Sequence record: OR544956
Source: Escherichia phage vB_EcoM_EP57
Reading direction: 5' to 3' (one strand)
Length of the DNA stretch: 64,000 nucleotides
Part shown: positions 21,554-30,849 of the stretch, piece by piece
How the letters are laid out: every line of letters begins with the position of its first letter
Position numbering within the stretch: position 1 is the first letter of the stretch
Position numbers and translations under genes: made by a program
Notes under the pieces: generated by a model
What the model was told of the DNA's origin: nothing
The model's database searches: none
The model's input: only the letters and a program-made list of their open reading frames with translations

Positions 21554-21632
21554 TGGAGGCGGGAATTGGATTTGAACCAATGATCTCCAGCATATGAAAC
21601 TGGCGAGGACGACCAGACTCCTCTATCCCGCT
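21554..21632 (-). tRNA. tRNA-Met (anticodon CAT), CCA encoded
   Basis: hand-folded cloverleaf; T arm ATTGG-TTCAAAT-CCAAT; anticodon loop TTCATAT; A1:C72 mismatch noted. Confidence 0.5.
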
Positions 21633-22781: not shown

Positions 22782-22869
22782 TGGTGGTGAGTGATGGAGT
22801 TGAACCACCCGAATCGCAATGATAACAGATTTACAGTCTGCCCCGCTACCCCTACGGAATTAACTCACC
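22782..22869 (-). tRNA. tRNA-Tyr (anticodon GTA), class II, CCA encoded
   Basis: acceptor GGTGAGT/ACTCACC; anticodon arm GCAGA-CTGTAAA-TCTGT; T arm GGTGG-TTCAACT-CCATC. Confidence 0.6.
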
Positions 22870-23440: not shown

Positions 23441-23515
23441 TGGTGGCCCTGGCTGGTTTCGATCCAGCTACCTATCGGTTATGAGCCGACAGCTCTCCCA
23501 TTGAGCTACAGGGCC
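23441..23515 (-). tRNA. tRNA-Met (anticodon CAT; could be fMet or Ile2), CCA encoded
   Basis: acceptor GGCCCTG/CAGGGCC; D arm GCTC-AATGGGA-GAGC; anticodon arm GTCGG-CTCATAA-CCGAT. Confidence 0.6.
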
Positions 23516-28490: not shown

Positions 28491-28519
28491 TTGACTTGCG
28501 GGATTAGTTATGATATTAT
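28491..28519 (+). promoter_or_regulatory. sigma70-like promoter overlapping a hairpin plus T-run
   Basis: TTGACT - 17 nt - TATTAT, then GCCTACCT..AGGTAGGC TTTTT and RBS. Confidence 0.4.
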
Positions 28520-28558
28520 GCCTACCTACTTAATGAGGTAGGCTTTTTAGGAGGCGTT

Positions 28559-28768
28559 ATGAAAAAGATTCTGACAGTCGTTCTTTTAGCTTTTAGTTTC
28601 ACAGTAGCAGCAGGTCAAATTACTTTAATCTTGTCTGATTCTGAAGTTAATGGCAATACAAAATATTGCTACTATTCTAACGCTAACCAAGATGAAGTTA
28701 TAGCAATCCCGAAAAGTCGTCAATGTCCGTATACTAAAACATTCTCAACAGAGGATGACGATGAATAA
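28559..28768 (+). CDS. small secreted protein with signal peptide; stop is in frame with the long open frame that follows
   Basis: MKKILTVVLLAFSFTVAAG signal peptide, two Cys, acidic C-terminus; single TAA at 28766. Confidence 0.45.
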   Translation: MKKILTVVLLAFSFTVAAGQITLILSDSEVNGNTKYCYYSNANQDEVIAIPKSRQCPYTKTFSTEDDDE

Positions 28769-28780
28769 TTAGGGGGAAAT

Positions 28781-29899
28781 ATTAGCGGTTATATTTTAAT
28801 TAAGCCTGAAGATCTTCATTTATATGTCAACGAAGAAACAATAGCTGCAATTGATTATGATCAGATCGCTTTCCAAGCAGCGTCTGCATTAGAGAAAAGA
28901 ACAATCATTGCAAAGCACATCCCTTCAGGTGCTCAAAAGGAATTTAAAAATAAGACAGAGTTTTGGGGTAAAAGCAAGACTAAGATTGGAGGTTGGCTAG
29001 GAGATACAAATGCAGAAAGAGCCTCCAAAAACAAACGTCCCTTCACAAAGGAAGAGTTCGAAATCATTGATAAGCAATACCCGCCAGAAGATATCGGACA
29101 CACCTTCCAAGCAGCTAAAACAAAAGTCTTAGGTATTCTAAAACATCTACGTTTAGAAAAATATTGCGGAGTTATTGGCGTAGGAAAAACTTTCAGACAC
29201 GCCTTCAAAATGCCTGTAGAATATAAATCTGAACGATTAGATATCAAACCACTTCAGCTTTCAGAAACCAAAGATTATCTTGTGGAGTTCCACAATGGTG
29301 ATGTTGTTACTGTAATAGAAGCTGATGATGAGTTAGAGAAGTATGGTTTCCAAGGTTATAAAGATTATAAAAGGACGGGTAAATTTTCTTATATCGTTGT
29401 ATCTATAGATAAAGATAGTTTACATACTCCTAGTATCCTTTTTAATTTCTACAAAGAGGATGGAGTATTTAAAAATCCAGATATAATTCTTATTGACGAG
29501 TCTATTGGCGATATATGGATCGTAGATAAAGGTAAAAAGAAAGAAGTTAAAGGTTGGGGCAGTTACTGGTTAGCATATCAGATGCTAATGGGAGATAAAA
29601 CAGATAGTATCCGACCTTATCAAGATTTTGATATTAAGTTCGGAGATATTACTTGTTTTAATCTTCTTTCAGCTTGTAAAACTCAAGCAGAACTTTTCCA
29701 AACAGTTAAAGACACTTACTACTCATGGTTCCCAGAGGGTGTTAATTTTACTTCTTGGGATGGAGAAGAAGTCCATATGACAACAGATGAATGGATAGAA
29801 ACAATTTTCCAGTTGGTATACATGAAACGCTGGGATAATGACGATACAACATTTGAGAGTATGCTTCAGTCATACATCTCGCAACAGGAGGCAGAGTGA
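28781..29899 (+). CDS. hypothetical protein, possible FEN-like nuclease; start uncertain (ATG at 29210, or ATT at 28781 after GGGGG, or readthrough from 28559)
   Basis: frame open for 147 codons upstream of the track ATG with no ATG/GTG/TTG; GDKTDSIRP resembles the FEN GDxSDNIPG motif weakly. Confidence 0.3.
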   Translation: MSGYILIKPEDLHLYVNEETIAAIDYDQIAFQAASALEKRTIIAKHIPSGAQKEFKNKTEFWGKSKTKIGGWLGDTNAERASKNKRPFTKEEFEIIDKQYPPEDIGHTFQAAKTKVLGILKHLRLEKYCGVIGVGKTFRHAFKMPVEYKSERLDIKPLQLSETKDYLVEFHNGDVVTVIEADDELEKYGFQGYKDYKRTGKFSYIVVSIDKDSLHTPSILFNFYKEDGVFKNPDIILIDESIGDIWIVDKGKKKEVKGWGSYWLAYQMLMGDKTDSIRPYQDFDIKFGDITCFNLLSACKTQAELFQTVKDTYYSWFPEGVNFTSWDGEEVHMTTDEWIETIFQLVYMKRWDNDDTTFESMLQSYISQQEAE

Positions 29900-30849
29900 G
29901 CAGATTAACAGAAGAGCAGAAAGCAGATATCCTTAGTATGAGTGCAGAGGGTATGTCTTCTCGTAATATTGCAGCAATTGTTTTAGGTAGTCCAACAAGA
30001 AAAAGCACAGTGAACGATTTCCTTGCACGATTAAGTAAACAAGAGCCAGTTAAAAAGAAACAACCCGTTATTAAAATTATTGATGTTGAAACTGCACCAG
30101 AGATTGCATATACTTTCCGTCGATTCAAAGCCTTCATTTCTCCAGATCAAGTAATTCGTAGGGGTTATTTGTTATCTTACTCTTCTGCTGACCTATATAC
30201 TGGTGAAGTGGAAGGTAAGAACTTGTCTTCTTATCCTCTTTTTGATATTGATCATACAGATGATTGGGAGCTTTGCCAAGATCTTTGGAACCTTCTGAAC
30301 GAGGCAGATGTAGTTGTGGCACACAACGGGTATAAGTTTGACCGTGCATACATTAACCAACGATTTGCATATCACGATATGGCTCCTCCTTCTAATTATG
30401 TAGTTGTTGATACATTGAAGGCAGCTAAGAAACAATTTGCACTTCCTTCCAACTCCCTTAAAGAAATGGGAGCATATTTCGAAACAGAAAGTGAAAAACT
30501 GGATAACGAGGGGTTCCCTTTATGGAAAGCATGTTGTGAAGGTGATCGTGATGCTTTTGAACGTATGCAGATTTACAATGATGGTGATGTTGTTTCACTC
30601 CGTGATTTGTATATGAAAATCCTTCCGTGGATTCCACAGCATCCTAACTTATCCGCTTATTACCCAGATGAGAAAGTCCGTTGTTCTCGTTGTGGCAGTG
30701 ATCACGTTCACGTTGTTACTGGTAAGCAATACCACACTGCGGTAAGTTCTTTCGATATCATTCGTTGTGAATCTTGCGGCGGTTTGTCACGTAGTAGAGC
30801 AAACACCAGATCCAAGGATAAACGAGCAGCAACTATCATTGGAATCTAA
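29896..30849 (+). CDS. DEDD-family 3'-5' exonuclease (DnaQ-like) with C-terminal zinc ribbon
   Basis: Exo I IIDVETAPE, Exo II VVAHNGYKFD, Exo III YNDGDVVSLRDLY; CSRCGS...CESCGG. Confidence 0.5.
   Translation: MSRLTEEQKADILSMSAEGMSSRNIAAIVLGSPTRKSTVNDFLARLSKQEPVKKKQPVIKIIDVETAPEIAYTFRRFKAFISPDQVIRRGYLLSYSSADLYTGEVEGKNLSSYPLFDIDHTDDWELCQDLWNLLNEADVVVAHNGYKFDRAYINQRFAYHDMAPPSNYVVVDTLKAAKKQFALPSNSLKEMGAYFETESEKLDNEGFPLWKACCEGDRDAFERMQIYNDGDVVSLRDLYMKILPWIPQHPNLSAYYPDEKVRCSRCGSDHVHVVTGKQYHTAVSSFDIIRCESCGGLSRSRANTRSKDKRAATIIGI

Follow-up and report, generated by a model that had tools for sequence, protein, structure and literature searches.

A conserved near-cognate codon as the probable start of an exonuclease gene in Escherichia phage vB_EcoM_EP57 and its relatives

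INTRODUCTION

Two Escherichia coli genes, infC (which encodes initiation factor 3, IF3) and pcnB (poly(A) polymerase I), are the only ones given by Hecht et al. as having confirmed non-canonical starts, in both cases AUU. The same authors, having assayed all 64 codons as starts, placed AUA, AUC, AUU and CUG as the near-cognates of E. coli, with an output of 1–2% of that of AUG. A separate reporter study found AUU to be six- to eight-fold weaker than AUG, and across reporter studies near-cognate starts come to ~1–15% of AUG. Considered here is a phage gene that probably belongs in this small company. In a 64,000-nucleotide stretch of DNA from Escherichia phage vB_EcoM_EP57 (sequence record OR544956; 'the window', with positions counted from its first letter and features on the plus strand unless otherwise stated), the frame of an exonuclease of the FEN family is devoid of ATG, GTG and TTG for 147 codons, and its translation appears to start at an ATT at 28781–28783.

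The surroundings of such starts are pertinent to how they work. The infC AUU is 3 nt past the thrS stop codon, and in the study that measured the six- to eight-fold difference, initiation at junctions of this type was about half re-initiation and half de novo, with a 20-nt gap giving a ratio of re-initiation to de novo initiation of ~40:60. Non-canonical starts are rejected through the action of IF3 (PMC9723500), the overexpression of which also reduces re-initiation, and in vitro nutrient limitation and ppGpp bear more heavily on non-AUG starts.

A LONG OPEN FRAME WITHOUT A CANONICAL START

The locus begins with a small open reading frame (ORF) of 69 aa (28559–28768), which starts at ATG 28559, opens MKKILTVVLLAFSFTVAAGQ and stops at a TAA (28766–28768). 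Beyond that TAA the same frame is open from 28769 to a TGA at 29897–29899, a matter of 376 sense codons, and the first ATG, GTG or TTG within it is ATG 29210, at codon index 147. A preliminary description of the DNA, made from its letters, had remarked on this arrangement, and all of its coordinates were borne out: there is a single TAA between the two same-frame ORFs, no canonical start from 28769 to 29209, and a GGGGG (28772–28776) followed by the ATT at 28781–28783. ATG, GTG and TTG together account for 4.85% of the codons in the long ORFs of the window, and at this frequency a run of 147 codons with none of them has a probability of ~7e-4; the chance of the frame staying open is ~1.6e-4 for 147 codons and ~2e-10 for all 376. 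A start-less open frame of this length is more than chance.

The 147 start-less codons are coding and needed, and are under strong purifying selection, since Nei–Gojobori estimates over codons 2–143 give low nonsynonymous differences (pN 0.09–0.35) beside saturated synonymous ones (pS 0.65–0.90), with similar values for the C-terminal part. The impression that 28769–29209 is protein-like, recorded at the outset beside the contrary prospect of a non-coding spacer in the orthologues or of random codon usage, has withstood the comparison.

THE PRODUCT IS A PREDICTED FEN-FAMILY EXONUCLEASE

Read from 28781 to 29899 the frame specifies 372 aa, for which phrog_107, tblastn, AlphaFold2, Foldseek and hhalign all point to a 5'-3' exonuclease of the FEN family. 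The full frame matches phrog_107 ('exonuclease') with E 1e-55, and its N-terminal 143 aa on their own do so with E 5e-7. With the entire 376-codon frame as query, tblastn yielded matches in 1,208 phage records, 900 of them with at least 80% query coverage. In other genera (CR3, rV5-like JES2013, Ro1, ICP1 and JG004) the match lies under one annotated exonuclease gene, of ~350–520 aa, and the full frame corresponds to single exonuclease genes of 345–385 aa in hundreds of phages. We presume some resemblance to T7 gp6, there being one tblastn match to phage RIO-1, which we take to be T7-like.

An AlphaFold2 model built with 56 homologues has a mean pLDDT of 96.2 over the 372 residues, with residues 1–143 folded as well as the rest, and the top 12 Foldseek matches in the PDB are to E. 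coli ExoIX, the T5 D15 flap endonuclease and the Mycobacterium smegmatis Pol1 5' nuclease (E 6e-5 to 4e-3; probability 0.98–1.00 for the first 11 and 0.93 for Pol1). Alignment by hhalign to T5 FEN, the sequence of which was verified against 1ut5, is marginal overall (probability 48%, E 1.9e-4), and it pairs EYKSER with T5 EYKGNR (K83/R86), IEADD with VEADD (E128/D130), SIDKDS with STDGDW (D153/D155) and MGDKTDSIR with MGDLGDNIR (D201/D204). The EADD catalytic motif (E180, D182 and D183; 29318–29329), which thus corresponds to T5 E128/D130, is invariant among homologues. T5 D68 is not conserved, its equivalent in the same alignment being Val or Gly. The IDYDQ motif (residues 24–28; 28850–28864) is encoded within the start-less part, and is invariant in one alignment (A1) and at least 90% conserved in the other (A2). 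Strand β1 of the model spans residues 16–25, and D25 and D27, at its end, are probably the first metal-binding aspartates, with the equivalence to T5 D26 assigned by inspection.

A Pfam scan of the full-length window protein returned no match, and relatives reach 23.7–27.3 bits against PF02739, under its gathering threshold of 34.3 bits; the Pfam threshold not being reached, membership of the FEN family rests on the fold, the motifs and phrog_107. Sequence searches of the PDB, with phmmer and with a profile, found no nuclease; it took the fold search and hhalign to bring the relationship out. The frame 28769–29899 is one gene, predicted to specify a FEN-type 5'-3' exonuclease of the replication/recombination module.

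THE PROPOSED START SITE ACROSS RELATIVES

DNA spanning the orthologous junctions was taken from GenBank, IMG/VR, JGI/ENA metagenomes and Logan assemblies, with the relatives labelled by L-numbers, and it furnished 30 distinct junctions extending from 100% down to ~49% protein identity. The Shine-Dalgarno (SD) sequence of the exonuclease gene, GGGGG 28772–28776 in the window, is conserved across them. Its core is GGAGG or GGGGG, 4–5 nt 5' of the start, in 29 of the 30 and GGAGA in the remaining one (L073), and G at −9 and at −6 is invariant in 30/30. Depending on lineage the SD nucleotides would be read as Gly-Gly, as Glu-Asp or as stop-containing, and their conservation is therefore at the RNA level.

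What stands 4–5 nt past this SD is a near-cognate position that is itself conserved. Counted per record, with the identical junction of L003 and L012 entering twice, the codon is ATT in 14, ATC in 10, ATA in 6 and CTG in 1, which is exactly the near-cognate set of Hecht et al., and a canonical start at the SD-anchored position occurs in none of the 30 distinct junctions. Protein conservation starts exactly at the proposed start codon (as I/L-S-G-Y-I-L-I... or I-S-K-F-E-T-I-S...). Four relatives (L014, L034, L035 and L036) have an in-frame TAA immediately before the ATC, with the next canonical start 35–142 codons further on, and six others (L011, L022, L033, L037, L038 and L040) have an SD-overlapping TAG three codons upstream of the start. 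The distance from the proposed start to the first canonical one is 142 codons in L035, L037 and L022, and 195 in L067. Outgroups, at identities of at most 47%, have TTG (L048, L074 and the rV5-like phages) or ATG (CR3-like phages and L019/L051) at the homologous position, and their SD spacing is unchanged. An approximate neighbour-joining tree unites the near-cognate users as one clade for which ATT is the inferred ancestral state, and on it there are at least nine changes of state, among ATT, ATC, ATA and CTG together with one TTG sub-clade, and none to ATG.

The geometry is that of the phage's own ribosome-binding sites (RBSs). A 4-nt spacer between SD and start is the commonest in the window, being found in 15 of 33 genes over a range of 2–12 nt, and both neighbouring genes have it (GGAGG-cgtt-ATG for the small ORF and GGAGG-caga-GTG downstream). 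A scan of the 64 kb found ATT 28781 to be the sole combination of an SD and a near-cognate codon that is not adjacent to a canonical start; since all other such sites are near a canonical start, the feature is specific to this gene rather than a genome-wide habit. None of the phage tRNAs of the window is an evident initiator in which the anticodon has been changed. Folding of the single sequence around the RBS was not significant (z −1.4), and RNAalifold on 15 lineages gave zero pairs. A structural gate on the RBS was rejected in the light of this lack of a significant or conserved fold.

From these comparisons ATT 28781 is very probably the translation start. Several considerations pull the other way. 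Many of the relatives are unverified metagenome or Logan contigs. The exclusion of G from the third base of the codon is equally to be expected of an ordinary internal Ile codon, and because of this the argument for a start draws its force from the lineage with CTG, the lineages flanked by stops, the SD and the point at which protein conservation begins. In five relatives a canonical codon that has no SD is present 5–12 codons downstream (ATG in L029, L046, L073 and L075; TTG in L025), and these codons may be alternative or emerging canonical starts. The ATG of L046 stands 6 codons past its ATT, and the other four sites are at L029 1501, L073 801, L075 70 and L025 1501. One of the pairs between GGGGG and the anti-SD is a G-U wobble, and for E. 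coli a spacer of 4 nt is short.

HOW THE START MIGHT WORK

Initiator tRNA would read ATT 28781 as fMet, the codon being served by a strong and unstructured SD, GGGGG 28772–28776, 4 nt upstream. The weakness of the codon would hold synthesis of the nuclease low, and that synthesis would probably be sensitive to IF3, as is the case for E. coli infC and pcnB. The stop codon of the small ORF is only 12 nt before the ATT, and for this reason a share of the initiation events probably comes from ribosomes that re-initiate directly after terminating at its TAA. The gap between the two is 8–18 nt in most junctions, L030 being an exception.

Might the near-cognate start be more than a low setting? Conceivably it is a conserved regulatory device in which the open SD, a codon subject to discrimination by IF3 and the adjacent stop tie the nuclease to initiation fidelity and to translation of the small ORF. 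We consider this doubtful as matters stand, though if true it would amount to an infC-like sensor (of the ratio of IF3 to ribosomes, of ppGpp or of temperature) by which the timing or dose of a FEN nuclease with the potential to damage the host is set, and the repeated switching among AUU, AUC, AUA and CUG across the clade, with no change to AUG, would then signify selection for a regulatory property.

The product of the small ORF, with a signal peptide and two Cys, matches phrog_4641 (E 7e-27), and the ORF has its own RBS, the GGAGG-cgtt-ATG mentioned above. For the phi92 homologue, gp086, the annotated SignalP probability is 1.000. Most lineages keep the small ORF 5' of the exonuclease gene. 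The conserved Cys residues are in ...C[FY]YSN... and ...QCPYT[KR]TF..., and the C-terminus is acidic. A secreted small protein next to a replication nuclease throughout a clade is an odd genomic context.

ALTERNATIVE EXPLANATIONS

The preliminary description had offered three accounts of the interrupted frame, with no preference among them: initiation at the ATT, readthrough of the stop, and a base-call error creating that stop. Comparative evidence strongly favours the first; the second is contradicted by frames and stops that vary among relatives, and the third by six genomes, as detailed below. The reading that comes nearest to rivalling it is a variant of ATT initiation itself, in which coupling would be obligate, with the ATT used essentially only by ribosomes terminating at the small-ORF TAA and output set by translation of the small protein. 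The spacing lends it some appeal, for in most junctions the stop that closes an upstream ORF of 50 codons or more falls 8–18 nt before the start, often overlapping the SD (taGGAGG); this is kept even in L029, where a methyltransferase gene takes the place of the small ORF, and the short distance of the infC AUU from the thrS stop is similar. Yet L030 retains SD-tttt-ATT with its small ORF ending ~100 nt upstream, tight gene spacing is generic in phages (including the outgroups with ATG starts), and a strong conserved SD favours some de novo recruitment. Besides, the lowering of re-initiation by IF3 overexpression means that proofreading of the start codon is not obviously bypassed by this route. 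Obligate coupling seems to us unlikely, though it deserves to be kept in mind. Initiation at another in-frame non-canonical codon slightly downstream, such as ATT 28793 or ATT 28799, is much less likely. The first seven codons (ISGYILI) do have several ATT or ATA codons among them, but those two are 16–22 nt from the SD, outside the 2–12 nt range of this phage, and their position is not conserved in the divergent L015, L016, L029 and L073. By comparison the codon 4–5 nt past the SD is always near-cognate, and protein conservation begins at the first codon. Leaderless initiation from a weak promoter-like match at 28742–28769 was set aside, as leaderless mRNAs generally require a 5' AUG.

Two further explanations do away with a start at ATT 28781 altogether, and both are extremely improbable. 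In the first, the signal-peptide ORF would be fused to the exonuclease by frameshifting or by a programmed readthrough at TAA 28766, and the window, with its two same-frame ORFs and one stop between them, looks the part, as does a database protein of 444 aa (P0005) that resembles such a fusion. However, the small ORF is out of frame with the exonuclease in L003, L010, L012, L025, L027 and L028, there are two in-frame stops between the ORFs in L014–L016 and L034–L036, and the ORFs are not adjacent in L029 (with its methyltransferase gene upstream) or L030 (with its ~100-nt gap). The residues from the stop to the ATT lack conservation at the protein level, the exonuclease gene has its own conserved SD, and it makes little functional sense for a nuclease acting on DNA to carry a secretion signal. 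A T after TAA, besides, makes for strong termination in E. coli. P0005 was rejected as a natural fusion: its DNA (L022 1501–2835) has a TAG that was read as Gln by a metagenome gene caller, which apparently chose an alternative genetic code to bridge the gap. The other explanation is that the annotation is right, with only a 229-aa protein being made from ATG 29210 and the 5' part being a non-coding or decaying remnant, or else the stop being a sequencing error. Seven of seven inspected GenBank/RefSeq records do call a 5'-truncated gene. Against them, the 5' part is under purifying selection, matches phrog_107 when taken alone, and belongs to a confidently folded single domain. ATG 29210–29212, the public start, encodes an internal Met144 inside the conserved core GVIGVGKTFRHxFxMPxEYKSER; it is without an SD and the position is Leu in several relatives. 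A product of 229 aa starting there would miss two core strands and the invariant IDYDQ. As to sequencing error, six close relatives, each sequenced independently, show the same stop, SD and ATT.

ANNOTATION AND ITS CONSEQUENCES

The public records differ in where they truncate the gene. In Phapecoctavirus (the phAPEC8 RefSeq entry, ASO2A, WPEC4 and Ro121lw) 229 aa are annotated from the ATG, and in Justusliebigvirus (ECGD1, phi92 and PaulScherrer) the call is 345 aa, beginning with the GTG of codon 32, of which the phi92 record states 'No RBS identified; weak Prodigal statistics'. Records with the 229-aa version often carry spurious coding sequences (CDSs) of 93 or 123 nt in the gap. Examples, each labelled 'hypothetical protein', are at 2211–2333 in L001 and at 809–901 and 911–1033 in L071 (equivalent to 28909–29132 of the window), the 123-nt one being in another frame. 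The junction, in this form or one close to it, is present in more than 130 GenBank/RefSeq genomes from Phapecoctavirus, Justusliebigvirus and relatives.

A core replication/recombination nuclease is in consequence misannotated, and gene callers limited to ATG, GTG and TTG will repeat the error. As the TAG=Gln of P0005 illustrates, a missing canonical start can even provoke a false call of recoding. Full-text literature searches brought up nothing specific on this start, or on natural AUU, AUC or AUA starts in phage genes, and no proteomic or ribosome-profiling data came to light in them. The gene is a candidate, with evolutionary backing, for a third non-canonical start used by the E. coli translation apparatus, and the clade offers a natural 'allelic series' at one position (ATT, ATC, ATA and CTG, with TTG and ATG in outgroups) that is usable for tests of start-strength tuning. 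These E. coli phages are candidates for therapy, and the true start and the probable limitation of dose are relevant to recoding or cloning of the gene.

THE GENE NEIGHBOURHOOD AND OTHER FEATURES OF THE WINDOW

The window, of 38.6% G+C, belongs to a phAPEC8-like member of the genus Phapecoctavirus (Stephanstirmvirinae), its identity to such phages being 99%. On the 5' side of the exonuclease locus are genes for a MazG-like pyrophosphohydrolase and an RdgC-like protein. Downstream is a gene for a DnaQ/RNase H-like 3'-5' exonuclease (29896–30849; PF13482, E 9e-10), the GTG of which overlaps the stop of the exonuclease frame (GTGA) and is preceded by the GGAGG-caga spacing noted above. A consensus scan predicts a sigma-70-like promoter at 28491–28519 (TTGACT-17-TATTAT with a TG extension; 10/12 matches), and a comparable TTGACT element was found in relative L022. 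By its sequence and position this promoter is inferred to serve an operon of the small ORF and the exonuclease gene. At the end of the rdgC gene there is a terminator-like hairpin with a T-run (28520–28548), for which the annotation of phage ASO2A gives a rho-independent terminator. The near-consensus, extended −10 promoter directly adjoins this hairpin. RNAs from the TTGACT promoter would begin within the 5' arm of the hairpin and escape termination, and RNAs reading in from upstream would terminate.

Further away, on the minus strand at 357–2107, a gene for a tail protein (phrog_2871) is divided between two overlapping frames: an ORF from 2107 to 1481 (208 aa) covers profile positions 113–275, and an open frame from 1622 to 357 (421 codons, with its first canonical start at codon 72) covers positions 282–701. 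Relatives have a stretch of 520 nt at this locus where the window has 501 nt, with only ~94% identity, and this points to an indel of ~19 nt or to net gaps. Frameshifting or pseudogenisation of the gene, a frameshift that is programmed, or a fault in the assembly could each account for the split. The minus-strand frame 357–1622 was considered as a second start-less gene and rejected, a split tail-protein gene being a different phenomenon.

Among the tRNA genes, all three of those to be mentioned being on the minus strand, a tRNA-Met(CAT) at 21554–21632 has an acceptor stem topped by an A1×C72 mismatch (the cloverleaf was parsed by hand). Bacterial initiator tRNAs are characterised by having no Watson-Crick pair at 1:72. 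The anticodon stem of this tRNA, CCAGU/GCUGG, is without the three consecutive G:C pairs of initiators. The other 'Met'(CAT) tRNA, at 23441–23515, has an acceptor stem and a CUCAUAA loop that we take to be like those of E. coli tRNA-Ile2 (ileX), and it is probably a decoder of AUA after lysidine modification rather than a Met tRNA. An eleventh tRNA, at 22785–22869, scores 39 bits with Rfam and is absent from the ARAGORN output.

COMPARISON WITH KNOWN SYSTEMS

Likeness to phage readthrough, as in the case of the Qbeta A1 protein, is superficial and confined to the layout of two same-frame ORFs with one stop. The frame relation and the single stop are not conserved among relatives, and for that reason this is not a readthrough system. 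The IF3-repressed GTC start of Streptomyces sigR (PMC5472188) is likewise a natural non-canonical start in translational control, but it differs in codon, organism and regulatory logic. As regards the protein, T5 D15, ExoIX/Xni and the Pol I 5' nuclease have in common with it the fold and the EYK..R, EADD, DxD and GDxxD motifs, though in comparison with that family the phage protein is ~80–100 residues longer, with an insertion at about residues 40–126 between strand 1 and the second core strand.

With infC the exonuclease gene would share an AUU start, a mixture of de novo initiation and re-initiation, and conservation of a weak start as something functional. The difference is that the infC AUU is the sensor of an autoregulatory loop in which IF3 represses its own start (Butler et al. 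1986, as cited in the reporter study that found AUU six- to eight-fold weaker); the phage product being a nuclease, any dependence on IF3 would be one-way. In pcnB an inefficient AUU limits the amount of a nucleic-acid enzyme, according to Binns & Masters 2002, as cited in that reporter study, and to Hecht et al., and by analogy this would be the best functional parallel for a dose-limited nuclease. Even so, pcnB is a host chromosomal gene with one codon type, the phage clade interchanges four, and toxicity of the phage nuclease is an assumption. Near-cognate initiation is already known from infC and pcnB, and this gene is a further case of it rather than a new mechanism. What distinguishes it is that, as the aligned junctions read, four predicted near-cognate starts have been kept and interchanged throughout a clade at one SD-anchored position.

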